From contig JACOXD010000004.1 of NCBI GenBank assembly GCA_016176465.1, forward strand, positions 114,119-178,118: DNA of 64,000 bases, in the 5' to 3' direction. Positions 7,442-59,820 of this stretch are shown here, piece by piece. Both the position numbers and the translations under genes were made by a program. How positions within the stretch are numbered: the stretch's first letter is position 1; every line of letters starts with the position of its first letter. The notes under the pieces are model-generated. The model ran no database searches. It was not told where the DNA came from and saw only the letters and a list, made by a program, of their open reading frames with translations. This DNA comes from Candidatus Daviesbacteria bacterium. GTDB lineage: Bacteria > Patescibacteriota > Microgenomatia > Daviesbacterales > UBA10151.

Positions 7442-7553
7442 ACTTTATGATTTTTACAAAAATTTAAGTCAGGCAGTTACTACTTTTCCCAAAACTAAAC
7501 GTTATAGGGTATTTGTCAACATTTTACTTCCAAGCTATACTACAAAAACTTAA

Positions 7554-7982
7554 ATGGAAAAAAAGAAATTAAAAAAAGCTGTGATTTTTATTTTTTTAAA
7601 AGATAGAAAAGTCTTAGTAGAAAAGCGGATAAGAGATGCAGAAAAAATATTGAAAAATCAACTTATTTTTCCAGGAGGAGGTTTGGAAGAAAAAGATTTC
7701 GATGATCTAGAAGTTGCGCTGAAACGAGAGATTTTTGAAGAACTCGGAGTATCCGCTTCGAAATTTTCACAATTAGCAAAAGGGTTGAAAATTATTAGTG
7801 CCGGTAAAGATGCCAGTTTACATCCATTTATTATTGAAGCTTGGGAAAATGAAATTCCTGAAAAAATTTTAGATAAAGATGTTCCTCTTTTTTGGGTGGA
7901 TATAGAAGTTATGCTAGAATCCAAAATTGCTCCAACTAAAAAAATAGCAGAATTGGTAAAAGACTATTTAGAAAATGTATGA
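7554..7982 (+). CDS. NUDIX hydrolase
   Basis: A Nudix box FPGGGLEEKDFDDLEVALKREIFEELGV (GGx5Ex7REuxEExGu). A 4-nt overlap (ATGA) couples it to the sbcC start. Confidence 0.65.
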   Translation: MEKKKLKKAVIFIFLKDRKVLVEKRIRDAEKILKNQLIFPGGGLEEKDFDDLEVALKREIFEELGVSASKFSQLAKGLKIISAGKDASLHPFIIEAWENEIPEKILDKDVPLFWVDIEVMLESKIAPTKKIAELVKDYLENV

Positions 7983-46334: not shown

Positions 46335-46839
46335 TTACTTTTTCCCCTGGGGCAGGCTTAATAATTATATGACGGTTAATCCCTTCACCTAAACTTTCTG
46401 ATTCTACACCTTCAGTGCCAGAAATTGTTAGATGAATTACTCTTCTTTCCCAAGCAGGCATTGGTTCAAGCTCCATTTGCTCACTTGTTTCTATCACTTT
46501 TTGCGCCCAAGCTCTAGCCTTATGAGCTAAATCTTCCTCTCTTGATTTTCTCCAATTAGAAACATCAATGACCACTTTTTTAAATTCTTCTCCTTCTTTG
46601 AGGGATTTTGCTAAAATTTGATTAACTATTAGCTGAAGGGCAGATAAAGTCTCTCCATGCCTGCCTATTAATTTACCAGCATCGATAATCTCAATAGAGG
46701 CAGCTATATAATCGGCGCTTTCTTCAACCTCAAATGAACCCTCAAGCGAGAGTAAACCTAATATATTTTCTAAAATCTCAGAAACTTTATTTTCGTAGAA
46801 AACCTTATTCTCCATGAGAACCTCCTTTTCCATTAACAC
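46294..46839 (-). CDS. jag: Jag/KhpB-like RNA-binding protein (KH + R3H domains)
   Basis: Conserved position immediately downstream of yidC. KH-like IAASIEIIDAGKLIGRHGETLSALQLI and R3H-like LEPMPAWERRVIH. Confidence 0.6.
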   Translation of the reverse strand: MLMEKEVLMENKVFYENKVSEILENILGLLSLEGSFEVEESADYIAASIEIIDAGKLIGRHGETLSALQLIVNQILAKSLKEGEEFKKVVIDVSNWRKSREEDLAHKARAWAQKVIETSEQMELEPMPAWERRVIHLTISGTEGVESESLGEGINRHIIIKPAPGEKVNEKSSKKVTSKGS

Positions 46840-47665
46840 CCCTTAATCTATTAATAATCCCATCCATTCCACCCCATCCTGAAAGTAGGTACTGTTGGAT
46901 TATGCCGATTAATGTAAACATATTCCAGTAAACAGAAAGGCCGGTCGGGAATTGCCAGGAGAAAAAACCAATCATAACCGGCATCATATAAACCATTTGC
47001 CCCTGGATAGCACTCATAGCATCCTCAGCTTTCTCTTTCTCTTTCATCTCTTTAGGTAAATCTGAAGGATATTTTTTAACAGGCTTTGGCATAATCATTT
47101 TTGATTGAATAAAGGTCAATACCGCTGTTAAGAGTGGGATCAAAAGCAAGAGGTAACCGTGTTGGACAAACTCAGCAGGCTTATAAGTTAGGTTGATCCC
47201 TAAAAAATTAGGATCAGGGGGGGAAGATAACTTCATGACAGGAAAATATAGCATTTCGTTAATTTGTTTTAAACCACTCGGACCGGAAAAAAAAGCAAAA
47301 ATCGCCTGATAAAGCGCGATTAGAATTGGAAACTGAATTAAAGTAGGCAGACACCCAGCAGCAGGATTGACCCCATGTTCTTTATATAACTGCATTTGGG
47401 CTTTGGCAAAAGCTTGTTTATCCCCTGCATGCTTTTTTTTAAGCTCATCCATATGAGGCTTTAAATCAGCCATTTTTTTAGCAGATTTTAATTGCCGAGA
47501 AATTGCCGGCCAAGTAACTAGCCTTATAAGTAAAGTTAAAATAATAATGGAAAATCCTAACGCTCCTGGGATTCCCAGGTATTGAAGTGTATTGATTAAA
47601 AATACCAACAAGTTAATTAAGGGAGCTAAAAAAACAGTATTGAATAAATCAAAAATTACCTGCAC
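46805..47665 (-). CDS. yidC: Membrane protein insertase YidC (short, Gram-positive/CPR type)
   Basis: The YidC/Oxa1 60-kDa-IMP core (GVNPAAGCLPTLIQFPILIALYQAI..., WQFPTGLSVYW). The order rpmH-rnpA-yidD-yidC-jag is conserved. Confidence 0.8.
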   Translation of the reverse strand: MQVIFDLFNTVFLAPLINLLVFLINTLQYLGIPGALGFSIIILTLLIRLVTWPAISRQLKSAKKMADLKPHMDELKKKHAGDKQAFAKAQMQLYKEHGVNPAAGCLPTLIQFPILIALYQAIFAFFSGPSGLKQINEMLYFPVMKLSSPPDPNFLGINLTYKPAEFVQHGYLLLLIPLLTAVLTFIQSKMIMPKPVKKYPSDLPKEMKEKEKAEDAMSAIQGQMVYMMPVMIGFFSWQFPTGLSVYWNMFTLIGIIQQYLLSGWGGMDGIINRLRGVNGKGGSHGE

Positions 47666-47874
47666 GAAATTATCCTCCTTAATCCTAAATAAACTCCTCT
47701 AATGCTGCCATACTCAGCAATCATTTGCTTTGTATACTGCGAACAAGTTGGGTAATTTCGACAACTTCCTCCCGGAGCAAAGTAAGATAAAACACCATGA
47801 TCAAATGAAAGGAATTTTTGGTAAAAATCAATTAGGGATAATAATATCTTGGACATTTTGTAAATCTTTAGCAA
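47656..47874 (-). CDS. yidD: Membrane protein insertion efficiency factor YidD
   Basis: CRNYPTCSQY...RCHP-like Cys motif (CRxxPTCSxY) in a 72-aa protein, in the conserved position. Confidence 0.7.
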   Translation of the reverse strand: MLKIYKMSKILLSLIDFYQKFLSFDHGVLSYFAPGGSCRNYPTCSQYTKQMIAEYGSIRGVYLGLRRIISCR

Positions 47875-48163
47875 CCAAAGTAGGATTTGCTTTTAAAATA
47901 TTGACTTTAGGCATGATAACTAAATTCAAATTTTTAATCAATAGCGGATAAGTTAGGTCAGTAGCGCTGAAAGCTAATCTTTTAGCCTTGTTTCGCTGTG
48001 TTGATTTAGGAAAGTATATTTTAGAAAGGGCAATTCCAATTAAGGGATTTTCATTTTCTCCGAGTCTAAAATTAAGTTTTAAATATTTTGTTTCTTTTTT
48101 ATCTCCTTTGGCTACCCACTTAAAACTTTTTGATAAATTTAGCCTTTTATTTTTAGGAAGCAT
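47828..48163 (-). CDS. rnpA: RNase P protein component RnpA
   Basis: A basic 111-aa protein with a KNKRLNLSKSFK RNR-like motif, located between rpmH and yidD. Confidence 0.7.
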   Translation of the reverse strand: MLPKNKRLNLSKSFKWVAKGDKKETKYLKLNFRLGENENPLIGIALSKIYFPKSTQRNKAKRLAFSATDLTYPLLIKNLNLVIMPKVNILKANPTLVAKDLQNVQDIIIPN

Positions 48164-48488: not shown

Positions 48489-49820
48489 ATGGACGAAAAG
48501 GAGAGAAAAAAGATCTGGACGAAGATAACTGATGTTATTAAAGAAGAAATCTCATCAGCCAATTTTAGAACCTGGTTTTCTCAAACAGTGCTGGGAGAAA
48601 TAAGTAATGAAAAGATGGTGATATTTGTCACTTCTGCATTCATTAAAAACCAGCTCTTATCACGCTATCAATCTTTACTTGAAGAGGCTATTGAAAAAAC
48701 TTTGGGCAAAAAAATGGTGGTTGAATGTAAAATAAACACCACAATCAACTCAATTTCGGAAGAAAGTTTTGAGCTGGAAACTCCTCCACGACTACAATCT
48801 TTTGTAGGCCTTAACCCAAGATATACTTTAGCCAATTTTGTGGTTGGATTAACCAATAACTTAGCTTATGCAGCGGCTCAAGCCGTTGTCCAAAACCCAG
48901 GCATCTCTTATAACCCTTTATTTATTTACGGTCCATCAGGGGTAGGGAAGACTCACCTGATGCAAGCTATTGGTAATGCCATTTTTGGCAAAAATTCCTA
49001 CTCAAAAATAGTTTATGCTCCCTCAGAACGCTTTATGGTTGATTTTGTGGATTCAATTCAAAATAAAAAAACAGGAGATTTCCGCTCAAAATACCGATCC
49101 TCCAATTTATTATTAATAGATGATATCCAGTTCATAGCTGGAAAAGATTCCACACAGGAGGAGTTTTTCCATACTTTTAATGAATTACACTCCAAAAATT
49201 GCCAGATTGTTTTGACTTCAGATAGACCTCCTAATGAAATGGTAAAATTAGAATCCAGGTTACTCTCCAGATTCCAAGGGGGATTAATGGTGGACATTCA
49301 ATTACCTGACTTTGATACCCGGATGGCAATATTAAAAACTAAATTAAAAGAGCGAGAAGAAACCCTTCCTGAGGAATATCTTAAGCTAATTGCTGAAAAT
49401 ATAGAATCCAACACAAGAGAGCTTGAAGGGAAGCTTATTCAAATACTGCAAATGAGCAAACTAAGCAACCAACCCCTAAATGAAGACTCGGTTAGGAAGT
49501 TTTTGGGATCTAGACATAAACAATTATCAGCTAATATAGATCATAAAAAAGTTCTAACAACTTTAAATAACTATTTTAATATAAAAACAGCGGATTTAAC
49601 TGGTCCTAGACGGCAAAAAGAATTAGTTTTACCCAGGCATTTGGCAATGTATATTCTTTACGAAGAGTGCAAAATTCCCATGGAAAAGATTGGTCAAATT
49701 TTAGGAGGTAGGGATCACACTACTATTTTGCATGGGATTGAAAAAATAAGGGGTAATTTAGGAAGGGACCGGGAAGTACAAAGACTACTGATTGAAATAA
49801 AACAACAGCTTCTAAATTAA
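48489..49820 (+). CDS. dnaA: Chromosomal replication initiator DnaA
   Basis: AAA+ motifs: Walker A GPSGVGKTHL, Walker B LLLIDDIQF, sensor and arginine-finger regions. The C-terminal DNA-binding domain (LTGPRRQKELVLPRHLAMYIL..., IGQILGGRDHTTILHGIEKI). Confidence 0.9.
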   Translation: MDEKERKKIWTKITDVIKEEISSANFRTWFSQTVLGEISNEKMVIFVTSAFIKNQLLSRYQSLLEEAIEKTLGKKMVVECKINTTINSISEESFELETPPRLQSFVGLNPRYTLANFVVGLTNNLAYAAAQAVVQNPGISYNPLFIYGPSGVGKTHLMQAIGNAIFGKNSYSKIVYAPSERFMVDFVDSIQNKKTGDFRSKYRSSNLLLIDDIQFIAGKDSTQEEFFHTFNELHSKNCQIVLTSDRPPNEMVKLESRLLSRFQGGLMVDIQLPDFDTRMAILKTKLKEREETLPEEYLKLIAENIESNTRELEGKLIQILQMSKLSNQPLNEDSVRKFLGSRHKQLSANIDHKKVLTTLNNYFNIKTADLTGPRRQKELVLPRHLAMYILYEECKIPMEKIGQILGGRDHTTILHGIEKIRGNLGRDREVQRLLIEIKQQLLN

Positions 49821-50002
49821 ATATCCACATTTCCCCTTTAGTTATCCACATACTTTTCCACAATTTTAAAGTATTTTTCAACACGAAAAAAGTTCGAAAT
49901 CTATTCTTAAATTGCTTGGTTTTTAAACTTATGCACATGCTCTATAATAGCTATTACTAATTTGAATATATTATATTTATCTAGAAATAAGTGGACAACT
50001 AA
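49821..50002. promoter_or_regulatory. oriC DnaA-box cluster with an AT-rich unwinding region, between dnaA and dnaN
   Basis: ATATCCACA (49821-49829), TTATCCACA (49842-49850), TTTTCCACA (about 49854-49862), TTATGCACA (about 49928-49936), and an inverted TTGTCCACT (about 49989-49998). These are interspersed with AT tracts (TTTTAAAGTATTTTT, TATAATAGCTATTACTAATTTGAATATATTATATTTAT). Confidence 0.65.
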
Positions 50003-50461
50003 ATGGAAATAAATTGGGTTGTTATTTTATTTATTGTACTTGGGTTGATAATTGCTTATTTAATCGGCAGACTGCAAGCAAAACCAAAATCAAGCGATAT
50101 TCCACAAGATTTCATAGATTTGTATAAACAAGTTGAAGGACTACCTTTAAGAGTTTTACAAACCATTCAAGGCTCAATTAATCCCCAGAAAGGAAAAATG
50201 GCAGAGCTTTTAACCTATGCAGAGCTTAGATATGATTATGATCGGATCATTCCGCTAGGTTGGCCAATTGATTTTATTGGAATTAAAAATAATGAGCGGA
50301 TTGATTTTATAGAAGTTAAATCAGGAAACTTTGCACTCTTGACAGATGAGGAAAAACACATTAAAAACCTTATAGTTAAAGGATCTGTTCATTTTAGATT
50401 AATTAAAGTAACAGAAGAAGAAATTTCTAAATTTATTTCTGCCCAAAAGGAAGGAAATTGA
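50003..50461 (+). CDS. Membrane-anchored PD-(D/E)xK nuclease-fold protein (YraN/Hjc-like), inserted between dnaA and dnaN
   Basis: An N-terminal TM helix (WVVILFIVLGLIIAYLIG). The pattern GKMAELLTYAELRYDYDRIIPLGWPIDFIGIKNNERIDFIEVKSG matches the E...(x)GEiDlia....e..fVEVK.R arrangement of YraN (UPF0102) and Hjc nucleases. Confidence 0.45.
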   Translation: MEINWVVILFIVLGLIIAYLIGRLQAKPKSSDIPQDFIDLYKQVEGLPLRVLQTIQGSINPQKGKMAELLTYAELRYDYDRIIPLGWPIDFIGIKNNERIDFIEVKSGNFALLTDEEKHIKNLIVKGSVHFRLIKVTEEEISKFISAQKEGN

Positions 50462-50477
50462 CAGTAATCAATTAACA

Positions 50478-51587
50478 ATGAAGATTACAATACTCCAGCA
50501 GGATTTGGTTGGTCCTCTCCAGGCAGTTTCCCGCTCAACCGGAAAGAGTAATTTACCAGTGCTTGCTAATATCTTAATCCAAACAGAAGCAGGTAAACTT
50601 AAACTCTCTGCCACTAACTTAGAGATAGGGGTTATAAAAAAAGTTAATGCAAAGGTGGAAGAAGATGGAGAAATCACTGTCCCATCAAGAACCTTTCTTG
50701 ATGTTATAACCTCACTAACAGGTGAAAAAATAACTTTAGAGGGCTCACTTGACCAATTAAAAATTTCTACCAGTAGTTTTAAAGCATCCATTAATGGGAT
50801 CCCAGCTAATGAATTTCCCTCAATTCCTTTAGCATCAGAGCAATCAGTTGTTTTAGATGCTTTTATACTAAAGCAGTCTTTGCCTGAGATTACTTTTGCA
50901 GCAGCTGTTGATGAGGGAAGGCCTATTTTAACTGGAATTTTAACTGAAATAAAAAAGGATTCCCTAGAACTTGTTGCAACAGATGGTTTTAGATTGGCTC
51001 ATAAGAAGGTTAAGATATTAGGAGAAGGGGAGTTTAAAGCTTTAATTCCCAGAAAGACTTTTGAAGAAATTGTTAGGTTAATTGATGAAGATTTAGTAAA
51101 CAGTAAAGAAGAAAAAGTGGAAATGGCAACAGCCGAAGGTCAAAACCAGATTATTTTTAAAATTGGCCAAACTGAACTTTCCTCTCGCTTAATTGAAGGA
51201 AATTTCCCATCCTGGGATAAAATAATCCCAAAAGAGTTTGAAAACAGAACTATTATTGAAAAGGGGGAACTTGCCAAAGCTGTCAAGCTGGCCTCAGTCT
51301 TTGCAAAAGACGTCGCTAATATTATAAAGATCCAAACCAGTGAAAATAAAATTATAGTCTCATCAGAGACAAAGGAGTTAGGTTCACAGGAAAGTGAAGT
51401 TGAATGCCTTGTTGAGGGCTCCCCTTTAATTATTGCTTTTAATGGTCGCTTTTTATCAGACGTACTAGCAGCTTGTTCCACTTCGCAAATTGCCATAGAA
51501 TTTTCCGGATCTTTATCAGCTGCGCTGCTTAAGCCAGTTGGGGAAGAGGGGTTAGAATATATTATTATGCCTGTTCGCTTAACTTAG
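50478..51587 (+). CDS. dnaN: DNA polymerase III beta sliding clamp DnaN
   Basis: MKITILQQDLVGPLQAVSRSTGKSNLPVLANILIQTEAGKLKLSATNLEIGV... with three-domain clamp architecture, in the conserved position after dnaA. Confidence 0.85.
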   Translation: MKITILQQDLVGPLQAVSRSTGKSNLPVLANILIQTEAGKLKLSATNLEIGVIKKVNAKVEEDGEITVPSRTFLDVITSLTGEKITLEGSLDQLKISTSSFKASINGIPANEFPSIPLASEQSVVLDAFILKQSLPEITFAAAVDEGRPILTGILTEIKKDSLELVATDGFRLAHKKVKILGEGEFKALIPRKTFEEIVRLIDEDLVNSKEEKVEMATAEGQNQIIFKIGQTELSSRLIEGNFPSWDKIIPKEFENRTIIEKGELAKAVKLASVFAKDVANIIKIQTSENKIIVSSETKELGSQESEVECLVEGSPLIIAFNGRFLSDVLAACSTSQIAIEFSGSLSAALLKPVGEEGLEYIIMPVRLT

Positions 51588-52051
51588 GCACCCCTATACT
51601 CAATGGTTTTAAAATGGAAAATTACCGGATCGCTTAAGGTTTTATTATTTTCAAACTTGGTACCTACTTGAATATTTAATGTATATCCCTGGCCTAAGGA
51701 AAAAGGATCATTTGGAATAATTTTTAAGGTTTTATTATTATTAGTTAGCTCAACTTTAAAGTCTATATTGGGTTCAATAACTATTCTGGTTTCAGGGATA
51801 TTTACCAAGGGTTGGTTAAAATTAATCTCCAAAGTCTGTGTAGGTAAAATAGTAGCTTCCTCTAGTGGGGAAGGGTTAGTTGAGATAACCTTGGGAGTTT
51901 CATCTTTAGGTTCTTGGTCAGCTGTAATAGGAAAATCTTTAACAGGAGTTTCACTTTTTGAGTAAAGTCCACCTTGGAAAATAGCAATTAGTAAAAGTCC
52001 TAAAACAGTAATTATAATTATTAATGGTTTTTTTAATAAAGAGAATTTCAT
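51584..52051 (-). CDS. Membrane-anchored extracytoplasmic protein (hypothetical), the last gene of the T4SS-like cluster
   Basis: 155 aa with an N-terminal TM helix (LLKKPLIIIITVLGLLLIAIF) and a beta-rich ectodomain. Confidence 0.35.
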   Translation of the reverse strand: MKFSLLKKPLIIIITVLGLLLIAIFQGGLYSKSETPVKDFPITADQEPKDETPKVISTNPSPLEEATILPTQTLEINFNQPLVNIPETRIVIEPNIDFKVELTNNNKTLKIIPNDPFSLGQGYTLNIQVGTKFENNKTLSDPVIFHFKTIEYRGA

Positions 52052-52656
52052 TCTCTGATTAAGTCTTCTTTAATAGGTCCTGATTCATTAATATCCTCAC
52101 CAAATTCTCTAATGTATTTCTCAGCAGTGCTTGGTTTAAATAATTGTATTTCATAAACTTCCTCTGTAAAAGGATTCGCAATCAAGGCAACGCCTTTAGA
52201 GCTATAAATATGAGTTTCGATTAAGGGTCCATATGTCTTAGAGCCTTTTTTGATACTTTCCACTTCGCCAAATCTTTCCTTGAAGTAGGAAAGCTTGACA
52301 TAAGATGGATGATTTGTTTGTTCTGGAATATTTATTCTTTCAAAGATAACTTGGCCATCTTTAACAATTACTTGATCTGGTCTTACAGGATTAATGTAAG
52401 TTTCTAAATTATATTCAACCTTTCCCTCTCCCAGCTCTTTTTTCTCCTTTATTATTAAGTTTTTTTCTATCTCTTGGGAGTTGGTTTTCCCAATTATTGT
52501 TTTTTGTAAATCAGAAATTTTAGGTGGGGTTAAACTCTCTTGTGGTTTTTTTAAAAATATAATTAGTAAAAGTATTAATATTAAAATTAAAAGTAAAACT
52601 AAAATCAATATGAAAACTGGCTTATTTTTAGGTATTAAAAAATAAAATTTATCCAT
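52048..52656 (-). CDS. Membrane-anchored extracytoplasmic protein (hypothetical, in the T4SS-like cluster)
   Basis: 202 aa with an N-terminal TM helix (VFILILVLLLILILILLLIIFL). ATGA overlaps give translational coupling. Confidence 0.35.
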   Translation of the reverse strand: MDKFYFLIPKNKPVFILILVLLLILILILLLIIFLKKPQESLTPPKISDLQKTIIGKTNSQEIEKNLIIKEKKELGEGKVEYNLETYINPVRPDQVIVKDGQVIFERINIPEQTNHPSYVKLSYFKERFGEVESIKKGSKTYGPLIETHIYSSKGVALIANPFTEEVYEIQLFKPSTAEKYIREFGEDINESGPIKEDLIRE

Positions 52657-52657
52657 A

Positions 52658-53401
52658 TTAATAGTTTCCTAATATATAGTTTGCCACATTATAGTGAAGA
52701 GGGAAATCCTCTCTTAAGTTTGGCGGGTGATAATCTGGTGAACAAAGGACTGTTTGCAATTTAGTTTCTGGGTTTAAGTAGTAAGCAATAGTTTCTGCAA
52801 AATCCTCAGAAATGTTATTACTTTTAGTGCATTCATATGCGTGGTTGCCATACCAAGTAACTCCTTTCTCAACCGCATGGGCCCTGAGATAATCTGACCA
52901 GCGAATCTGTTCCCGGTTATTACAGTTTGCAATAACATGGCCTAGTTCGTGGATTAATATTAACTTAAAAAGGGTTTCATCTTGGTAGGTTCCTACGTAT
53001 ACACTAACGCCTTTGAAACATCCCACTTGGGAAGAATCACGAGGGACTGAAGCAAATATTGTTGAGCCACGTACGTAATCAAAAAATTTTGTGTGAGAAA
53101 CATCCCAAAATTTTTCCCAAGCCCAGCGTAAGTGCCTGGTTCCATAATTTCTCATGGTAATTCCAAATTTTTCTTTAATTGCCCCTTCCAATGCAGCATC
53201 AGGAATATCTGGAGCAGTAGCCCTTACTCCTAGCTGAAGGGAGTTAGATACTTGTGGTTTTTGATCTAAGGGAGCATCACCAACCCTGGTGATTACTGGG
53301 TTACTCTTAACTGATTCCTGTGCAAAAACCAAACTAATAGTTGGTGATACTAAAAATGATAATAAAATTAAGATGTAAGTTAGGATTTTCATAATTAACA
53401 A
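52658..53401 (-). CDS. Secreted HExxH zinc metallopeptidase-like protein
   Basis: An N-terminal signal peptide (MKILTYILILLSFLVSPTISLVFAQE) and the LILIHELGHVIANC HExxH motif. Cys-rich. Confidence 0.45.
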   Translation of the reverse strand: MLIMKILTYILILLSFLVSPTISLVFAQESVKSNPVITRVGDAPLDQKPQVSNSLQLGVRATAPDIPDAALEGAIKEKFGITMRNYGTRHLRWAWEKFWDVSHTKFFDYVRGSTIFASVPRDSSQVGCFKGVSVYVGTYQDETLFKLILIHELGHVIANCNNREQIRWSDYLRAHAVEKGVTWYGNHAYECTKSNNISEDFAETIAYYLNPETKLQTVLCSPDYHPPNLREDFPLHYNVANYILGNY

Positions 53402-53973
53402 CCCGGCGCCATCGGATCAAATTTATATCCGCTTCCGCGCAGCTTATTGGAGACTTCAAAATTCAGATAAAATACTGCCGGAACCTGGCAAATCCCCTCA
53501 TCGCTAAAACCTTGTTCTTTAAACCAGCTAACCGTCTCCTCTTTAGCAAGGTCAATATCTGTAGTTAAAATTTCTACCATAAATTCATCCGCTGCTTTTA
53601 CATACTCTACCTTAAAGGTAGAAGTTGTAATTAAAATAGAAGATTGGTTTCCAATTGATGAAAGCAAAGAATCTTTAGCCGCCTGGTCCAAAGAAGAGAG
53701 GGTTTGACGATTTTCTAATCTATCAAGCAATTTTTTGGTCTTTGGGCTTTCATAAGTTATTGGAGGTTGTGTAATTTCTGATGAAGGAGCTGGGGAGAAA
53801 CTTGGAACACTAGATGGCAAGGGAGAAGTTCTCAACTCTTTTTTAGAAAAAAGGCTAGAGATTATTATAAAAACTAACCCTAAGATGGCAATTAATAAAA
53901 TAATTATTAAAATTTTAGTATTTCCAGGAATTAAACTTAGCATCTTATTATCGCCTATACTTATCTTGGGCAC
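53395..53973 (-). CDS. Membrane-anchored extracytoplasmic protein (possible VirB8-like bitopic component)
   Basis: 192 aa with an N-terminal TM helix (ILIIILLIAILGLVFIIISSLF), a Ser/Pro linker and a globular C-domain. The topology matches VirB8-like proteins, but there is no motif evidence. Confidence 0.3.
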   Translation of the reverse strand: MPKISIGDNKMLSLIPGNTKILIIILLIAILGLVFIIISSLFSKKELRTSPLPSSVPSFSPAPSSEITQPPITYESPKTKKLLDRLENRQTLSSLDQAAKDSLLSSIGNQSSILITTSTFKVEYVKAADEFMVEILTTDIDLAKEETVSWFKEQGFSDEGICQVPAVFYLNFEVSNKLRGSGYKFDPMAPGC

Positions 53974-55713
53974 AGGCCCAGTAACCCCAGGTTCTACCTT
54001 TGGTTGCTAAGAAATTATTGTAATTGATTGCATTAGTCGTTTGTAAGGTCCAAACCACATCTCCATGGTCATACTGGCCATTTCTTCCTCTGCCCATCTG
54101 ATAAAGTCCCCATGCACCTTGCGGATCAGGTGACCCACTGAAGAAATCATTTGGGTTATAACTACTTTCACAAGGGATAATTACATTAAACCAGAAATAA
54201 GCGTTAGTTGGATCATTTTGCTCTATGAGGGTATATAAATCATCTTTAGTAAAATTACATTGGGGGTCACCATAATTTTGCCCCAATGGGTTATTTAACT
54301 TATACCTTCCACTACATGTGTCATTATTTGCAGGAACATTTCCGGTAGTTGGAATGGTTCCAGCTCCACTAGTTGAGGTTATCTTTGCATCAGCACTGTT
54401 TACTACCCAAATATTATCATCAAGTGGGGCAACAACTAAAGCTAGTTGTTTAGTTTGACCTGAGGAAAGAGAGAATTGCCAGGTGACCACCTTACCTCTG
54501 CATTATCAGGGATAATATCTGTTACCTCAATATTAGCTATTCCTTGACCTAGGTATCCAACATTAATTGTGTATACAATAGGTTGTCCATTAGCAACCGC
54601 TCCATCAACCCCCCCTGGCCCTGTTTTAGAAATTGCTAATTGTTTGGAAGAAGATAGATTTTGGCCAGGAACTCCTCCTCCAAAAAGATTTAAAAGCATT
54701 GCCCCAAAAATTATCAAAAAAAGTAATCCTATAAAAAGTAGAGCTAATCTTTTATCAGCGATGGTCCTGGTTGGACCAAAGCGCCTAAACCTTCCAAAAA
54801 ACCGCCCTCCATTCCCTAGAAGTCTACCTCTTCCTGAGAAAATTCTTCCCAGATTAATATTTGGCCGCCAGGAGAACATATTTCTTAAAGGCATCCTAAA
54901 AGTTCTGGAGCTACCACTACTGCCTCTAAGGATGCCCATAAAACCTAAAATTCGATTACTAAAAAAAGCACCGCCTAATCCGCCAATGGCAGCGCCACCC
55001 CAGCTTCCGACTATTCCACCCATGACTGCCCCAGCACCGCCAGTCCATAAAGCAGGCTTACTTAAGATTTTTTTAAATGGAACAGTGTTAATTTTATTGA
55101 GAGGAATTTTAGAGAGGAGGTTGCTACTTCTTTGAAAAAAACTCCCTAAATTTTGCCTAATATTAATTGGTGCTCGCGGAATAGGACTTGGAGCAGGAGG
55201 CGAAGAAGGAGTAGGTGTTGTTGGAGTTGGAGGTTGACTCGGTTGGGGCTGAGGAGGGCTGGCGGGTGGCTGTGGAGGTTGTTGGGGAGGAAAGGGGGCT
55301 TGGTGGGGGAGGCTTGCTGGTGCAGAAGCTCCTCCATGAGATGGAGTAGGAGATGGTGTTTCTTGTTGTGACTGCTGGGCTAACTCAGCTTGTTCTGCCT
55401 CTGCTTCTTGTCTAAATTGCTCAATAACCTCTTTTGGCTCCTCAATTACTTTATTGGAATTCCAAATTTCATTTAGGTCAGGATCATTTCTTGCATAAGC
55501 AGTAGCAACAGTATCAATATAGCCTTCAGTTGTTGGCAAAACCTTAAATTTTGCTGGTAGAAATCTCTTGGAGTATTTAACAGCTAATTTTCGTGAAATG
55601 CGAGATGGAAACCCAGGGATGTTTAGGCTCCTAAATTGATCCTGCTTATTTTTATGAAACCTTAAAATTACGTTTAAAAGTGCTTTATGTAAACTAAACT
55701 GGACTAAAGCCAT
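53948..55713 (-). pseudogene. Surface protein with a Pro-rich region, a TM helix, a DUF11 conserved-repeat domain and a C-terminal VirB1-like lytic transglycosylase (SLT) domain. It is interrupted by a -1 frameshift at about 54442-54490 (track ORFs 54442..55713 and 53948..54490).
   Basis: Upstream ORF: PQQPPQPPASPPQPQPSQPPTPTTPTPSSPPAPSP, a Gly-rich segment, the TM LALLFIGLLFLIIFGAMLL, then a DUF11-like IVYTINVGYLGQGIANIEVTDIIPDNAEV. The DUF11 unit continues in the -1 frame as VVTWQFSLSSGQTKQLALVVAP. Downstream: SLT motifs CESSYNPN (ES), GAWGLYQM (GLMQ-like) and NAINYNN (AYN-like). Confidence 0.5.
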
Positions 55714-55715
55714 TT

Positions 55716-57497
55716 TTATCCTCCTTTAATTAAATCCTCAGGGTTAGCGGTTATTAACTGGTGCTCCTCAGGGGAAGCAATTACAGACATCGCAACATGT
55801 GTTGGCCCGGCAAAAAATAACCCCTGGCCTACCCCAGCAGATAATAAAAGCCTCATCTCTCCCTCTGATAGATTAAATACTTCCCCAATGCGTTCAATTG
55901 AGGCAGGGCTTTGTTTTAATAGAATTTGAATTGATGAATTAGAGATAATCTCTTTTCCCCGATCTCCTCCTAAGAAATCCTCTACATCTTGAGTAATGGT
56001 TGTTACTCCCAAAAAATATTTCCTTGCTCTTTTAGCAATTTCTACTAAAAAATCAGCTGAGTCAGGATTTTTCATCATATACCAGGCCTCATCTACAACC
56101 AGCAATCTTTTTTTACGCTTAATCCTGATTTTAGTCCAGATATAATCTAGTATTAGATACATAGCTAGCGGCCGCAGCTGATCTGCTAAATCCCTGACAG
56201 AAAATACAGTTAAAGAGTTAGATAAATCAATATTTGAAGGAGCGGAAAAAATCCCAGCCAGCGATCCTTTAATAAACCTCTCTAGTCTAAAATTTAATTC
56301 CAATGCTTGAGGTTCTTCCATACCAGCTAAAACTTTGTACAAATCTTCCATCAAAGGAGGTGGGTTTTTTTGAGTTTTTGGATCAGGGGTAATGCCTTTT
56401 AATCTATAGGTAGTAGTTATTGCTCTATCGAGTATTGCTGCTTGCCCGGCATCTAAACTTCCCAGCACTAATTTTAAAAACCCGGTTAATGATAAAATCT
56501 TTCTACCCAACTCATTTTCACCAGTCATGGCAACAGATGATAAATCAAAAGGGTTAATTTTAATTGGGGAATCAGATGAGAAATTAATATAATTTCCACC
56601 AATGGCTTTAGATAAACTTAGATACTCTTGTTCAGGATCAATTACTATAGCATCTGTCCCAAACATTAAAGAACGCAGCGTTTCTAATTTTACTAAATAT
56701 GATTTTCCCGCGCCTGACTTGGCGAAGATCGTACTGTTCCCATTCTCTAAACTAAACCTGTCAAAAATAATTAGTGAATCATTGTGCTCATTAATTCCAT
56801 ACATTATTCCCTCATTAGCAGTTAGTTCTGAGGAGGTAAATGGAAAAGTAGTAGCTAGGGATGTAGTATCCATATTATGGTTAAGAAGTAAAAGGTCTGC
56901 TCCTAAAGGTAGTGTTGAGATAAAAGAGTCCTCCATCTGCAAGGTTAGAGGATAAGCGTTTATGGAAAGTGAAGCTAGGGTGGATTGTAAAATCTTTGAG
57001 GTATTATCCAGTTCTTCTTTGGAGCTTGAAGGTAGTGTAATATATAACCCCAATTGGAAAAATCTTTCCGCCCCTCTGGCTAGTTGATCTTGCAGCGCTC
57101 TGGCATCATCCAAGGAAACTTGAACTGAAGGGTCTATATCCCTACCTCTTTCCAAATCAGTTTGGATGGTTGCTTCCATTTCAGCAATCTTTCTTTTTAG
57201 ATCATCCAAAATATCTTTTGAGGTAGATGGATAAATAAACATGGAAATATTTAACGAATGATCAAAAGATACTAGTGGTTCAAGCCAGTTTGGGCCAATA
57301 TAACGAGGGTAGCCTGCCACAAAAAAAGAACGAAAATATGTAGTGTTGATTCTTAAATGATTAAAATCAATCTCCATATCTTTAGGAGATAAAACATCAA
57401 CCAAAGAGACTGAATTGTTCACTGTTAATGGCGCATTGTTAATAGAAGTACTTTGAGTTTTTTTAGGCTTAATAAGATCAAGTAAAGGTATTTTCAT
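55716..57497 (-). CDS. VirB4/TraE/PrgJ-family type IV secretion ATPase (C-terminal ATPase domain)
   Basis: Walker A FAKSGAGKSYL, Walker B RLLVVDEAWYMM, and a length of 593 aa. Overall collinear with the CagE/TrbE/VirB4 C-terminal region. Confidence 0.75.
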   Translation of the reverse strand: MKIPLLDLIKPKKTQSTSINNAPLTVNNSVSLVDVLSPKDMEIDFNHLRINTTYFRSFFVAGYPRYIGPNWLEPLVSFDHSLNISMFIYPSTSKDILDDLKRKIAEMEATIQTDLERGRDIDPSVQVSLDDARALQDQLARGAERFFQLGLYITLPSSSKEELDNTSKILQSTLASLSINAYPLTLQMEDSFISTLPLGADLLLLNHNMDTTSLATTFPFTSSELTANEGIMYGINEHNDSLIIFDRFSLENGNSTIFAKSGAGKSYLVKLETLRSLMFGTDAIVIDPEQEYLSLSKAIGGNYINFSSDSPIKINPFDLSSVAMTGENELGRKILSLTGFLKLVLGSLDAGQAAILDRAITTTYRLKGITPDPKTQKNPPPLMEDLYKVLAGMEEPQALELNFRLERFIKGSLAGIFSAPSNIDLSNSLTVFSVRDLADQLRPLAMYLILDYIWTKIRIKRKKRLLVVDEAWYMMKNPDSADFLVEIAKRARKYFLGVTTITQDVEDFLGGDRGKEIISNSSIQILLKQSPASIERIGEVFNLSEGEMRLLLSAGVGQGLFFAGPTHVAMSVIASPEEHQLITANPEDLIKGG

Positions 57498-57500
57498 ATC

Positions 57501-58271
57501 TTAATCCTCTAGTTCCTCAACAACAAATGGTGTAGTAGTTCTTGGTTCACTAGGATAAGCTATCGGTGCTGTTTTTGGTGTAGTAGTTGCCTGAGGGCTA
57601 GTTATTGGAGGTGTTGAGGGTTGAGTTGTTGCCATCTGAGCAGGTGGATTAGGGGTAGAAAGTGAAGAAGCGAGGGGTAAGTTTAAATTAGTTGATTCAA
57701 CTTCTAAAACAGTTTCTTGAAATTCACTAGGGTTATAAATATCATAAAATAATTCAATTAACTTAGCACTGTTTAATTGCTGCGCTCGCAAGCCTATTCT
57801 CCATAATTGACGGATAATATGGTCTCGCCTTGGAATTAAAATAGTCAAAGCTTTTTGGCTGTTTTTGGTACTATTTTTTGTTAAGCCAAGTTCTAGATAA
57901 GAGAGGGGAATGATTATAAAAAATTGTTTATCCAAAACATCATTTTCTTTTACTGTTTGGGAGATAAAATTTTTATACCTTAAAATCATTGATGCAAGTA
58001 AGGGGTTACTTTGTTTTTTGTGTGCCTCTTCAAGCTTTTCCAAATAAGAGGTGACATTTAATCTTTTAGACCTAATCATAATTTGAATTGAAAAAGAAAG
58101 TGAGTTTAAAAGTCCGGCAAAACCGCTAATGATAGAAAGCTGTTCTCGCTCAGATAGTAAGCCAAAGTTAACAGCGCTTGTCTCCAATATAAGTGCTAAG
58201 CTAGAATCTTTTAAAATGACTAAATCACCTTGGATATCTTGGATTGGTAAATGTTCTTGAGTAGTAGCCAT
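57501..58271 (-). CDS. VirB4 N-terminal-domain-like protein (a separate ORF immediately upstream of the ATPase ORF), with a Pro/Thr-rich C-terminal tail
   Basis: LPIQDIQGDLVILKDSSLALILETSAVNFGLLSEREQLSIISGFAGLLNSLSFSIQIMIRS matches the N-terminal pattern of Gram-positive VirB4 homologs (ip.~~i~dgii~~kdGsy~kil~v~~iN~~L~s~~E). A TAA stop and a 3-nt spacer precede the ATPase ORF. Confidence 0.45.
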   Translation of the reverse strand: MATTQEHLPIQDIQGDLVILKDSSLALILETSAVNFGLLSEREQLSIISGFAGLLNSLSFSIQIMIRSKRLNVTSYLEKLEEAHKKQSNPLLASMILRYKNFISQTVKENDVLDKQFFIIIPLSYLELGLTKNSTKNSQKALTILIPRRDHIIRQLWRIGLRAQQLNSAKLIELFYDIYNPSEFQETVLEVESTNLNLPLASSLSTPNPPAQMATTQPSTPPITSPQATTTPKTAPIAYPSEPRTTTPFVVEELED

Positions 58272-58308: not shown

Positions 58309-59490
58309 TCATAGATTTTTGGCATGGATACTTATAGGAGGAATTACTTTTCCATCAAGCGTTATCTCTAAAGTGTCAAAGTAAAATCCTTCTTTTTCAA
58401 GGGTAATTGTGTAAGTTCCATTAGGTAGGGGTGTTGCCGCTAAGAATTGGCCTAATTTGTTTGATTTTAGGGCTCTAACGGGTAATCCTTGCTTATCATG
58501 GGTTACAATAATTACGCCATCCAAATAATTACCCTGGTTATCAGTTACTATCCCATTAATACTATTGGGTGTGGAAGTTAAAGTGATCTTAGTATCTTTG
58601 CTTGATGCAAGCTCTGGTGCTACTACTACTTTTTTGGGAGTAGGGCTAATTGGGGTTTGGGCAAGCAAAGCTAATTTATGGGAGATTTCTGCTTGCTGAT
58701 TATTTAATGCTGACAAAGTTTCTAAAGCTAGTTGAAGCTGTGCAGCAAAATAGGTAGTATTAGTACCTGGTTGGACAGCCGCAGCTTTTATGCGGTTAAT
58801 CAAATTTTGCGTTTCTATAATTTTAGTTTGGATAATTTGAGCTTGCTTGGCTAGCTCCACTTCCAAATGTAGTTGTTCACTGCTAGGCAAATGGGGAGGC
58901 ATAAAAGTTTTTGGTACCTCAGGAGGAATTTGTGGTTGAGAGAGAGTTGAGGGTTGTTTTGGAGGAGTTGTTAGGGGAGGAGTAATGGGCTGGTTAATAG
59001 CTTGAGGGGCAGGGATATTAATAGTTGAAGCGGTAGGAGTGTTTACAGGTGAGACTGTAGCAGTTATTGGAGCTGCTTGCTGGTCAAACCTAGCTATGGT
59101 TGTTATTTTAGGAGTAGTTGAGTTTTGAGGTCTTGGGGCAAAACTTAAGAGGTAATAAGCTAAGCGGTTTTTAAAAAACAATTCATCTTTTTTAATGTTT
59201 TTAGATTGCCAGGTTCTTTTTGTTGGATTAAATATTGCTTTAAAAAAAGTTATTGCCCAATGATCTAGAGGTCTTTCATAAATGGGTAAAAAAGCAAAAG
59301 CTGCTCCAAATGAAGCTGAGATTATAATAATAGGCCAGGCAATTAAAGGAAGCTTAGGAGCAATTAAAATAAAAGTTAAATAAGCAGTTGCGAGTCCTGC
59401 TGCCAGATAAAGAAACTGCTTTAGTGTCATATCGCCAACTAGATGAAATTCAAATTGGCTGACATTTTTAGGTACAGGGTGTCCGTCCAT
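58309..59490 (-). CDS. PrgI/VirB3-like two-TM membrane protein with a Pro/Thr-rich linker, a coiled coil and a C-terminal carboxypeptidase-regulatory-like beta-sandwich domain
   Basis: The N-terminus FEFHLVGDMTLKQFLYLAAGLATAYLTFILIAPKLPLIAWPIIIISASFGAAFAFLP shows the PrgI-family hairpin topology. The C-terminus GIVTDNQGNYLDGVIIVTHDKQGLPVRALKSNKLGQFLAATPLPNGTYTITLEKEGFYF is a CarboxypepD_reg-like fold. Confidence 0.45.
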   Translation of the reverse strand: MDGHPVPKNVSQFEFHLVGDMTLKQFLYLAAGLATAYLTFILIAPKLPLIAWPIIIISASFGAAFAFLPIYERPLDHWAITFFKAIFNPTKRTWQSKNIKKDELFFKNRLAYYLLSFAPRPQNSTTPKITTIARFDQQAAPITATVSPVNTPTASTINIPAPQAINQPITPPLTTPPKQPSTLSQPQIPPEVPKTFMPPHLPSSEQLHLEVELAKQAQIIQTKIIETQNLINRIKAAAVQPGTNTTYFAAQLQLALETLSALNNQQAEISHKLALLAQTPISPTPKKVVVAPELASSKDTKITLTSTPNSINGIVTDNQGNYLDGVIIVTHDKQGLPVRALKSNKLGQFLAATPLPNGTYTITLEKEGFYFDTLEITLDGKVIPPISIHAKNL

Positions 59491-59639
59491 AACACAACAA
59501 GCTTATAATGTGAAAATTTTACTGTCCAGCCACTCAAAATAGATCATTTTCCACACAATATCTTGGATCTTGAAAAACTTAACTAAACCCTATACGCTAA
59601 GTAATAACTAAATACTTAAAGGATAGATTGGATCAGACC

Positions 59640-59820
59640 AATCTTTAATCAGGGGAAAAGCGATGACCCGCTTCGCAGCGAGGCGAGAATTTCGCTGTTG
59701 TGCCGCAACCGTATAACCGGACTGCCTGAATCCTTTTTCTCTTCGAGCAAAGAGTCCGCAAGAAGCGGATGGGTTTACCAACTTAAACCTCCTCGAAGGG
59801 GGTATTTTTTTGCTAAAAAT
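59640..59820. repeat. GC-rich repeat-derived leader region. It contains partial copies of the hairpin-element family (gcgatgacccgcttcgcagcgaggcgag) and a GATTGG-N6-CCAATC inverted repeat.
   Basis: It shares AGCGAGGCGAG and CGCTTCGC cores with 7095-7120. The track ORF start at 59698 lies in this repeat (MCRNRITGLPES...), so the true start of the downstream gene is probably ATG 59821. Confidence 0.45.

Follow-up and report, generated by a model that had tools for sequence, protein, structure and literature searches.

A probable T4SS-associated cell-wall hydrolase gene of Candidatus Daviesbacteria, split in its deposited assembly by a 31-bp deletion

Introduction

In Patescibacteria, T4SS genes are found near dnaA, and canonical VirB1 homologues are rarely linked to virB4 in most classes, other glycosidases having been suggested for the role (PMC12102498). 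Directly behind the virB4 gene in the genome of a Candidatus Daviesbacteria, a tiny groundwater bacterium, in a 64,000-nucleotide stretch of one contig that we analysed as a whole (hereafter the window), lie two overlapping open reading frames (ORFs), deposited as the 'hypothetical protein' entries MBI2011471.1 and MBI2011470.1. Are these two genes, one gene read through a programmed shift of frame, or one gene that has been broken, and what would its intact product do? An earlier note, made from the sequence alone, had described them as a DUF11-repeat surface protein fused to a VirB1-like lytic transglycosylase and interrupted by a -1 frameshift, either as a genuine pseudogenisation or as a programmed event.

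By comparing the window with nearly identical DNA from public read sets, with homologous loci, and with sequence and structure profiles, we conclude, with a probability of roughly 0.9, that the two ORFs represent one T4SS-associated cell-wall hydrolase gene of Ca. Daviesbacteria (Microgenomates/Patescibacteria), split by a 31-bp deletion and not by a programmed frameshift. The gene is of a kind already known, and its break lends no support to recoding and reveals no new mechanism; the deposited genome, for its part, can be corrected by replacing two hypothetical entries with one gene in which the 31-bp lesion is flagged.

Results

Two reading frames of one gene

The upstream ORF (55713..54442, minus strand) encodes 423 aa, and the downstream ORF (54490..53948, minus strand) encodes 180 aa from a GTG codon, its frame being open from 54502 and lying at -1 to that of the upstream ORF. 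In the upstream frame, IEVTDIIPDNAEV is followed by 16 out-of-frame codons and a TAG, while the -1 frame across the junction reads GKVVTWQFSLSSGQTKQLALVV. An open frame of 184 codons is expected by chance with p ~1e-6 at the local base composition, and the downstream ORF has homologues at E = 1e-40 to 1e-53. Both the continuation in the -1 frame and the homopolymer-free junction, as the earlier note described them, are seen in the sequence (no run of four or more identical bases occurs in 54430-54520).

The frame is unbroken across this point in all relatives compared, including alleles that are 99.95-100% identical to the window. Locus L002 has a single ORF of 703 aa directly after virB4, L082 has a protein of 396 aa (P0013) in the same slot, followed by the same downstream genes and by dnaN/dnaA, and L036 carries a version of 1210 aa; the comparison of orthologs for continuity of frame, which had been suggested as a check, thus finds every relative read through in one frame. 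Together with the intact 598-aa allele of other assemblies, described below, this bears out the proposal that the two ORFs are one gene: MBI2011470.1 and MBI2011471.1 are parts of a single 598-aa coding sequence, arranged as follows.

54499..55713, minus strand: 5' section of the native hydrolase gene (codons 1-405 out of 598), matching residues 1-405 of P0172 exactly
54497..54498, minus strand: deletion junction, at which 31 nt of contigs L085, L086 and L087 are absent, with no microhomology and no flanking direct repeat
54442..54496, minus strand: overlap zone, read as 16 out-of-frame codons and TAG in the upstream frame and as native GKVVTWQFSLSSGQTKQL in the -1 frame
53948..54496, minus strand: native 3' part of the hydrolase gene, G417-R598 and the stop codon

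The 5' part encodes a cytoplasmic N-terminal domain, a Pro-rich linker, a Gly/Arg-rich region, a transmembrane (TM) helix and the first half of a CLIPPER/DUF11 domain, and was deposited as MBI2011471.1 with its out-of-frame tail to 54442 included (423 aa). In the 3' part, the second half of the CLIPPER domain is followed by a Gly/Thr linker and a lysozyme-like domain; this part was deposited as MBI2011470.1 from the GTG at 54490 (180 aa).

The break is a 31-bp deletion

Three Logan contigs (L085, L086 and L087, assembled from the public read sets SRR12113384, SRR12113424 and SRR12113430) carry 31 nt (TACCTGTTTCAGCTAGTGAGGGAAAAGTTAT) that are missing from the window between 54498 and 54497, where the sequence at the junction is GATAATGCAG^AGGTAAGG, and each of the three encodes one intact protein of 598 aa. 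Outside the 31 nt, L086 and the window are 100.000% identical over 2317 + 1869 bp (the DNA of 56814..54498 being 100% identical), and L085 and the window are 99.95% identical. The missing nucleotides encode VPVSASEGKVI, and the 598-aa proteins P0041 and P0172 equal the window's two ORFs with VPVSASEGKVI at the break. The gene is split here only by the absence from this assembly of 31 bases found in the otherwise identical DNA of three read sets. A domain-internal measure agrees: the spacer from the D..P motif to the xxW motif is 17 aa long with the 31 nt restored and 7 aa long in the deleted sequence, compared with 18-35 aa in 12 homologous domains.

The -1 frameshift of the earlier note accordingly holds as to the frame and not as a simple shift of one nucleotide, its cause being the 31-bp deletion relative to the intact allele. 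Insertions or deletions of 1 or 2 nt are ruled out by that allele, and an insertion of 5 nt (GTAAG), whose removal restores the frame, is likewise set aside. The deletion junction occurs in none of the 87 loci fetched, and neither the fused protein nor a 33-mer adjacent to the junction found a match in metagenome scans. A search for repeats, direct or inverted, as a possible cause of the deletion gave only a 5-bp TACCT/AGGTA complement, which is at chance level.

Falling inside the CLIPPER domain, the loss takes out 11 codons' worth of sequence and shifts the frame by -1; translated as written, the gene would yield two pieces, a 423-aa membrane stub that lacks the enzyme and a 180-aa fragment that lacks an export signal.

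A membrane-anchored protein with a DUF11/CLIPPER spacer

The intact 598-aa product consists of a cytoplasmic N-terminus, one TM helix, one DUF11/CLIPPER-type beta-sandwich and a C-terminal domain of the lysozyme superfamily.

54682..54750, minus strand: single TM helix, residues ~322-344 (LALLFIGLLFLIIFGAMLLNLF), from hydropathy and the positive-inside count
54380..54651, minus strand: DUF11/CLIPPER-type beta-sandwich, interrupted by the deletion, from the TIGR01451 score, homologues, AF2 and Foldseek
53951..54328, minus strand: lysozyme-superfamily glycosidase domain, residues 473-598, from the family alignment, profiles and AF2

Of the K/R residues flanking the TM helix, 8 fall within the 30 positions before it and 2 within the 30 after it, from which an N-in, C-out topology is predicted; the catalytic domain is thereby predicted to lie outside the cytoplasmic membrane. 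The AF2 model that contains both domains has a mean pLDDT of 87, the 10-residue block means being mostly above 90 in the C-terminal domain and mostly 79-93 in the CLIPPER domain.

The window's copy of the beta-sandwich scores 21.3 bits against TIGR01451 (cutoff 24) and is thus sub-threshold, and PF01345 (DUF11) matches neither the two ORFs, nor the fused construct, the isolated domains or the intact P0041. Six homologues (P0001, P0013, P0014, P0044, P0064 and P0077) exceed the PF01345 cutoff of 24.6 bits with 29.7-42.9 bits, so that membership in DUF11/CLIPPER follows by transitivity of homology. In the AF2 model the domain forms six strands in a CnaA-like beta-sandwich; Foldseek finds the CLIPPER structure 9ifr (probability 1.00, E = 1.7e-3) as well as CARDB and ester-bond adhesin domains, and for the two-domain model its matches in PDB and BFVD are almost only Ig-like. 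K363 (54625-54627), D399 (54517-54519) and N449 (54398-54400) stand at the positions expected from the K, D and N motifs of the CLIPPER isopeptide bond (10.1101/2025.04.25.650565), and may be regarded as a candidate Lys-Asn isopeptide triad. Of the 'DUF11-repeat surface protein', then, what survives is a DUF11-type Ig-like domain that spans the break; the name itself is a misnomer, as there is one sub-threshold domain and no repeat array, and the domain serves as a spacer in a membrane-anchored enzyme.

The C-terminal domain belongs to the lysozyme superfamily

The C-terminal motifs quoted in the earlier note are present, as PCES(S), GAWGLYQM and NAINYNN, and YDHGDV, YWAC and Cys residues are conserved beside GAWGLYQM and NAINYN. 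E526 (54167-54169, in PCES) is the putative catalytic Glu, invariant in 38 sequences and placed by the AF2 model at the end of helix H147-162, in keeping with the ES / GLxQ / AYN-type pattern of SLT domains. At 50% identity, the family to which this domain belongs forms at least 521 clusters, with the domain always in C-terminal position.

The search of the C-terminus against PF01464 (SLT) that had been proposed gave no match for the window sequence: neither ORF, nor the fused protein, nor the isolated C-terminal domain matches at E <= 1 to 10, and neither does the intact P0041. Within the family, 18 of 38 members match SLT at E <= 0.1 (best 6e-6), the two scores at hand, 18.6 and 19.9 bits, both lying below the gathering cutoff of 21.3 bits for PF01464. 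Against PDB the family profile finds C-type lysozymes, 3cb7 (E = 4.5e-5) and 2fbd (1.1e-4), with their Glu35 aligned to the invariant Glu; the position of Asp52 in GH22 is aligned to the invariant Ala of GAWG, and the Glu35/Asp52 pair is thus incomplete. PF00062 (GH22) has no match in the window, its best score among homologues being 26.3 bits (P0014) against a cutoff of 27, with 3 of 38 members at E <= 0.1. In hhalign, the family profile and hen lysozyme are aligned over the catalytic region at low probability; phmmer with the C-terminal domain alone found no match among PDB sequences; and for a first AF2 model of this domain, built from 17 sequences (pLDDT 63), the top Foldseek matches are human lysozymes at a weak E of ~0.5. 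The SLT/VirB1 proposal therefore stands in a broader form, that of a glycosidase domain of the lysozyme/SLT superfamily, encoded in a T4SS operon and plausibly a VirB1 analogue, and is overstated in its narrower one, since the relation to SLT appears only at the level of the family and the profile matches in PDB are C-type lysozymes.

The gene sits in a PrgI / TraC-like / VirB4 operon

The hydrolase gene immediately follows virB4 within a PrgI / TraC-like / VirB4 operon that is conserved in Patescibacteria and adjoins dnaN and dnaA.

58309..59490, minus strand: PrgI (VirB3-like) with a CarboxypepD_reg domain, first operon gene within the window
57501..58271, minus strand: TraC-like ORF for the N-terminal part of VirB4, split off in the same way in relatives
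55716..57497, minus strand: VirB4-type ATPase, C-terminal ATPase part (P-loop_TraG 1.2e-25, AAA_10, DUF87; 591 relatives), immediately upstream of the hydrolase gene
53395..53973, minus strand: 192-aa conserved membrane protein after the hydrolase gene, overlapping its 3' end, syntenic in L002, L036 and L082
52658..53401, minus strand: 247-aa secreted protein with an HELGH motif, in the slot of the CHAP or M23-like peptidase of related operons

An in-frame TAA between the TraC-like and VirB4 ORFs was considered as a second lesion and rejected, the two-gene layout being the same in relatives. The slot after virB4 is filled likewise in L001, L002, L036, L082 and L084, and the lysozyme-like family was seen in six independent virB4 operons; it occurs in 2 of 80 VirB4-anchored loci and is not a universal T4SS component. 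Pfam detects no CHAP or NlpC/P60 peptidase domain within the hydrolase itself (the window's sequence and P0041). Downstream of it in relatives, CHAP is encoded as a separate gene in L002, and a weak M23 match, also as a separate gene, in L082; the 247-aa HELGH protein, which has no Pfam match, is by analogy a possible peptidase partner.

Discussion

Origin of the deletion

The same DNA is present with the 31 bp in three read sets; the deletion is therefore either a fault of scaffolding or consensus in the MAG or an allele in the population that lost its function very recently. The unity of the gene and the exact extent of the deletion are observed, as are the domain architecture and the operon context; the choice between these two origins, like the enzymatic activity and the substrate, is one that we infer.

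We give about an even chance to a fault introduced into the deposited MAG during assembly, scaffolding or consensus building, the organism itself having the intact 598-aa gene. Three independent assemblies have the intact allele at 99.95-100% identity, no homologue is divided at the break point, and the pipeline of the MAG had a separate scaffolding step able to abut contigs, in that MEGAHIT was followed by the IDBA-UD scaffolder (PMC7906910); on the other hand, no repeat or microhomology accounts for a collapse, and the three SRA runs may come from another project or sample than the MAG.

Somewhat short of even odds is a genuine allele, in which the hydrolase gene would have been inactivated very recently in the source population of the MAG, as a young pseudogene or an on/off variant. 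In a de Bruijn graph, a contig junction with zero microhomology is hard to make by mis-joining, and such a junction, not easily invented by a k-mer graph, speaks for real molecules, or else for the abutting of two contigs during scaffolding. The deletion is clean and internal, and both halves are otherwise intact with all family-invariant residues kept, as expected of a very recent event. Against such an allele stand the three other assemblies of the same sequence, all intact (L085 at 99.95%, L086 at 100%), the capacity of the MEGAHIT to IDBA-UD scaffolder step to abut contigs (PMC7906910), and the reported essentiality of this class of gene for epibiotic growth in a related lineage (PMC12102498).

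That functional protein is made from the sequence as it is, by programmed -1 ribosomal frameshifting or from two cistrons that each function separately, can be dismissed as very improbable: AF2 does keep a confident beta-sandwich at the junction of an artificially fused 588-aa version (10-residue block means of pLDDT 79 and 83), and a Shine-Dalgarno-like GAGGT precedes the GTG of the downstream ORF, but the ~60-nt overlap zone (54442-54502) holds no X_XXY_YYZ slippery heptamer, no relative shows the frameshift, slippage would still lose ~11 residues, and the downstream ORF alone has neither signal peptide nor TM helix that could bring its enzyme domain to the cell wall. The programmed event entertained by the earlier note is effectively refuted by the intact allele, in which the break is seen to be a deletion.

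Proposed function

From its domain architecture and operon context, the hydrolase of the intact gene is best interpreted as a functional counterpart of VirB1 in a PrgI/TraC-like/VirB4 system. Held in the membrane beside the VirB4 machine, it would cut the glycan strands of peptidoglycan locally and so let the T4SS apparatus cross the cell's own wall, and possibly that of a host, acting together with a peptidase encoded separately downstream; its role would be the functional equivalent of that of VirB1, or of PrgK/TraG in Gram-positive systems. The presence of a divergent lysozyme-like family in six virB4 operons fits the suggestion of alternative glycosidases (PMC12102498), and makes this hydrolase a concrete candidate for the enzyme that opens the wall in the Microgenomatia T4SS. 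A bolder view, which we regard as doubtful, is that the domain represents an uncurated, Patescibacteria-wide family of the lysozyme superfamily between GH22 and GH23, a 'missing VirB1' of Microgenomatia T4SS operons unseen by VirB1/SLT profiles, and that the 31-bp deletion is a real switch-off at the population level.

Comparison with known systems

Lytic transglycosylases form 1,6-anhydro-MurNAc products. With VirB1 and SLT family 1 (PF01464, GH23) the domain has in common the ES...GLxQ...AxxYN pattern, a single Glu without a partner Asp, and the weak SLT matches of 18 of 38 family members; it differs in that the window has no PF01464 match even at E <= 10 and that the best structure matches are to GH22 and not to lytic transglycosylases. 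The GH22 lysozymes (Musca domestica 3cb7, 2fbd; human) provide the best profile-PDB matches, covering most of the domain with Glu35 aligned, and resemble it in size (~120 aa), richness in Cys and its predicted extracellular location, whereas the invariant Ala in place of Asp52, the sub-threshold PF00062 scores and a different cysteine pattern set it apart. Like the stalks of DUF11/CLIPPER fibrillar adhesins (PF01345; 9ifr), the hydrolase has a CnaA-like beta-sandwich with K/D/N at the bond motif positions, and its homologues pass the Pfam cutoff; unlike them, it has a single copy as a spacer for an enzyme, sub-threshold in the window, and not a tandem stalk.

The VirB1-like hydrolases of Gram-positive T4SS, PrgK of pCF10 and TraG of pIP501, likewise combine an N-terminal membrane anchor with an extracytoplasmic glycosidase (predicted here) encoded beside VirB4 in a PrgI/VirB4-type operon, and local opening of the wall is the presumed common role. 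In contrast to them, the Daviesbacteria protein has no CHAP or NlpC/P60 domain in the same polypeptide (CHAP/M23-like being a separate gene in relatives), its glycosidase domain is below the Pfam SLT threshold, and it contains a CLIPPER domain.

A parallel in position is Ca. Southlakia epibionticum, in which homologues of a lysozyme and of a peptidase, encoded just behind virB4, are reported as essential for epibiotic growth (PMC12102498). The Daviesbacteria gene belongs to a different class (Microgenomatia), and its product has a CLIPPER spacer and a long cytoplasmic N-terminus in addition. The likeness, one of position and domain type, extends to the place directly after virB4, a chromosomal MPF-FATA-like T4SS near dnaA/dnaN, a lysozyme-superfamily domain and, in relatives, a peptidase-type gene next in line.

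Gene identity

The minus-strand gene under study is split into an upstream ORF (55713..54442, 423 aa), which ends ...IEVTDIIPDNAEV before 16 unrelated codons and a TAG, and a downstream ORF (54490..53948, 180 aa from a GTG), whose frame is open from 54502 and reads GKVVTWQFSLSSGQTKQLALVV... Relative to the upstream frame, the downstream one is shifted by -1, and no homopolymer of at least four bases occurs within 54430-54520; in both respects the ORF coordinates and the inspection of this interval confirm the description in the earlier note. At the window's base composition, a 184-codon open frame would arise by chance with a probability of ~1e-6. Both ORFs are deposited as 'hypothetical protein' of Candidatus Daviesbacteria bacterium (MBI2011471.1 and MBI2011470.1, on a 191-kb contig).

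A search with the artificially fused C-terminal 248 aa returned 16 proteins, seven of which run across the break as one continuous chain (alignment A1). The closest genomes, anchored on the neighbouring VirB4 gene, are Candidatus Daviesbacteria with VirB4 identities of 77-79%. Among the loci fetched for comparison, L002 has, directly 3' of virB4, a single 703-aa ORF laid out like that of the window (N-terminal region, transmembrane (TM) helix, DUF11-like domains, conserved C-terminal domain), and the gene after it is homologous to the one that comes next in the window; in L082 the corresponding position is taken by a single 396-aa gene (P0013), flanked by virB4 on one side and on the other by the downstream genes also found in the window, dnaN and dnaA; and the single-gene version in L036 encodes 1210 aa. 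The seven single-chain homologues, these three unsplit genes and two intact 598-aa alleles bear out the proposal that the two ORFs are one gene, and the break-spanning relatives read on in one frame, none being shifted.

Nature of the lesion

The spacing between the D..P and xxW motifs is 18-35 residues in 12 of 12 homologous DUF11-like domains and 7 in the window's fused reading, which suggests lost sequence and not a 1-nt indel. An exhaustive profile search retrieved P0041, a protein of 598 aa that differs from the window's two ORFs by a single substitution and by an additional VPVSASEGKVI at the break. It is carried by L085, the Logan assembly of public read set SRR12113384, which agrees with the window at 99.95% identity along 2011 bp, then contains 31 extra nt, TACCTGTTTCAGCTAGTGAGGGAAAAGTTAT, and continues at 100% identity over a further 622 bp. 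(Contig L085 begins, at 1-19, with AGATGTGTATAAGAGACAG, which we take to be an untrimmed Nextera transposase mosaic-end adapter lying outside the genome.) A second 598-aa allele, P0172, is found in the Logan contigs L086 (SRR12113424) and L087 (SRR12113430), and the only difference between L086 and the window, across 2317 + 1869 bp of 100.000% identity, is the 31 nt. These 31 nt are present in all three Logan assemblies, and the deleted junction is absent from every fetched locus. A deletion of 31 bp, found in this assembly alone, causes the frameshift; it lies between window positions 54498 and 54497, and the native parts of the gene are codons 1-405 (55713..54499) and G417-R598 (54496..53951). 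The change of frame noted earlier therefore stands, but the lesion, measured against the intact sequences, is not a 1-nt error.

We put the probability that the deletion is an artefact of assembly at roughly 0.5: the intact allele occurs in three independent assemblies, and the gene is conserved. The deposited assembly presumably originates from a groundwater study, an assumption drawn only from its locus-tag series and BioProject. If so, the MEGAHIT contigs were joined there by a separate scaffolder (PMC7906910). A real and very recent allele is a serious possibility at somewhat under even odds, as neither microhomology nor a flanking repeat was found at the breakpoints, and a k-mer graph could hardly invent a junction without microhomology. 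The programmed event that had also been entertained is rejected, since the 60-nt overlap zone lacks an X_XXY_YYZ heptamer, all relatives are unshifted, and a slip product would still miss ~11 residues relative to the intact allele; the absence of an export signal counts against a functional downstream ORF on its own.

Protein architecture

The intact protein comprises a cytoplasmic N-terminal domain, a Pro-rich linker (32% Pro), a Gly/Arg-rich region and one strong TM helix (~322-344), with eight K/R before and two after it, which predicts an N-in/C-out orientation; beyond the helix lie one DUF11/CLIPPER-type beta-sandwich and a conserved C-terminal domain of ~125 aa. CLIPPER, as DUF11 has recently been renamed, is a CnaA-like stalk domain, often with a Lys-Asn isopeptide bond (10.1101/2025.04.25.650565). 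The window's sandwich is sub-threshold (TIGR01451, 21.3 bits vs a cutoff of 24), and PF01345 is not matched even by the intact allele; the homologous domains of six relatives exceed the Pfam cutoff (29.7-42.9 bits). The AF2 model of the fused 588-aa version (mean pLDDT 87) has a six-strand sandwich, for which Foldseek returned the CLIPPER crystal structure 9ifr, CARDB domains and ester-bond adhesin domains as matches. K363 and D399 (upstream of the break) and N449 (downstream) occupy positions corresponding to isopeptide motifs, and may form such a bond.

In L001 the counterpart is naturally two genes (7013-7999 and 8001-8897), split at another point, immediately past the TM helix: the former encodes a 328-aa N-terminal/TM protein and the latter a secreted 298-aa CLIPPER plus lysozyme protein that has a signal peptide of its own, so that the N-terminal and enzyme modules can be separate polypeptides.

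C-terminal domain

The C-terminal domain has an invariant Glu (E526, in PCES) at the end of a long helix, the further invariant motifs GAWGLxQM, YDxGxV, NAxxYN and YW, and conserved cysteines. The SLT/VirB1 label of the earlier note, offered with a Pfam search as its check, was right in spirit, with SLT (PF01464) matched by 18 of 38 family members at E <= 0.1 (best 6e-6), but the window's own domain matched nothing in Pfam. The other matches among the 38 are to Phage_lysozyme2 (6), C-type lysozyme (3) and Transglycosylas (2), so that all the families matched are lysozymes, muramidases or transglycosylases. Against all PDB sequences, the family profile ranks insect C-type lysozymes first (3cb7, E = 4.5e-5; 2fbd, 1.1e-4) and human lysozymes next. 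The Glu35 of C-type lysozymes aligns to the invariant Glu, whereas their Asp52 aligns to an invariant Ala; a single carboxylate is also the condition of lytic transglycosylases and goose-type lysozymes. Taken together, the Pfam matches, the PDB matches and the retained Glu with Asp52 replaced by Ala identify the domain, at the level of sequence, as a divergent, single-carboxylate glycosidase of the lysozyme superfamily, putatively a muramidase or lytic transglycosylase.

The family comprises 521 clusters at 50% identity (exhaustive profile search, E <= 1e-3), and its lysozyme-like domain is C-terminal without exception, in proteins often of 550-1000 aa. Some relatives have two lysozyme-like paralogues in one operon (L083, 4060-4803 and 5399-6136; L084, 4756-6387 and 6995-7702); in L084 one paralogue, of 537 aa and with a faint DPBB_1 match, is directly 3' of virB4.

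Genomic context

[quoted passage not shown]
59490..58309 (-), PrgI (VirB3-like) with CarboxypepD_reg
58271..57501 (-), TraC-like N-terminal VirB4 part
57497..55716 (-), VirB4 ATPase
55713..53948 (-), hydrolase (gene under study)
53973..53395 (-), 192-aa membrane protein
53401..52658 (-), 247-aa HELGH-motif protein
52656..52048 and 52051..51584 (-), two small secreted or membrane proteins, one with a Big_5 domain

This arrangement is common to L001, L002, L036, L082 and L084. The operon points at dnaN, the two meeting at their 3' ends; farther along come dnaA, rnpA and yidC (window 48489-51587 and 46805-48163), which places the operon in the chromosomal origin region, as in L082 and L084 and as reported previously (PMC12102498). 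VirB4 is encoded by two ORFs in the same frame (256 aa, TraC-like; 593 aa, ATPase), the gap at 57495-57503 (-) being TAA, one codon and ATG; a second lesion is rejected here, since two genes of similar sizes are called in L001, L082 and L084, and the split is thus normal in this lineage. Just upstream of PrgI, L082 has three T4SS_pilin (VirB2-like) genes (1548-2777); in the window a divergent 466-aa ORF directly adjoins PrgI (59490-59698), and that position showed no array of pilin genes.

The second or third gene after the hydrolase encodes a CHAP peptidase in L002 (30.6 bits) and L036, and a protein with a weak M23 match in L082. In the same slot, the window's secreted 247-aa protein (52658-53401, -) has a zinc-metallopeptidase-like HELGH motif and no Pfam match; it may be the glycosidase's peptidase partner. 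A profile search found the lysozyme-like family in 2 of 80 VirB4-anchored loci, which makes it one of several solutions rather than a core component.

Comparison with known systems

The T4SS of Patescibacteria is kin to monoderm conjugation machinery and often adjoins dnaA, canonical VirB1 homologues are seldom linked to virB4 outside Paceibacteria, and epibiotic growth of Ca. Southlakia epibionticum requires the lysozyme and peptidase homologues encoded immediately 3' of virB4 (PMC12102498). The window's operon context matches this description. The most likely mechanism, every step of which we infer, is that of a tethered glycosidase: the enzyme would be anchored at the VirB4 machine by its TM helix and cytoplasmic N-terminus, the CLIPPER domain would keep the glycosidase at wall height, and local opening of the peptidoglycan would fall to this glycosidase together with a peptidase encoded by a separate gene. 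PrgK/TraG of Gram-positive T4SSs are two-domain hydrolases, of which the proposed glycosidase and separate peptidase would be a split version. The hydrolase gene is a further example of an already known kind of system.
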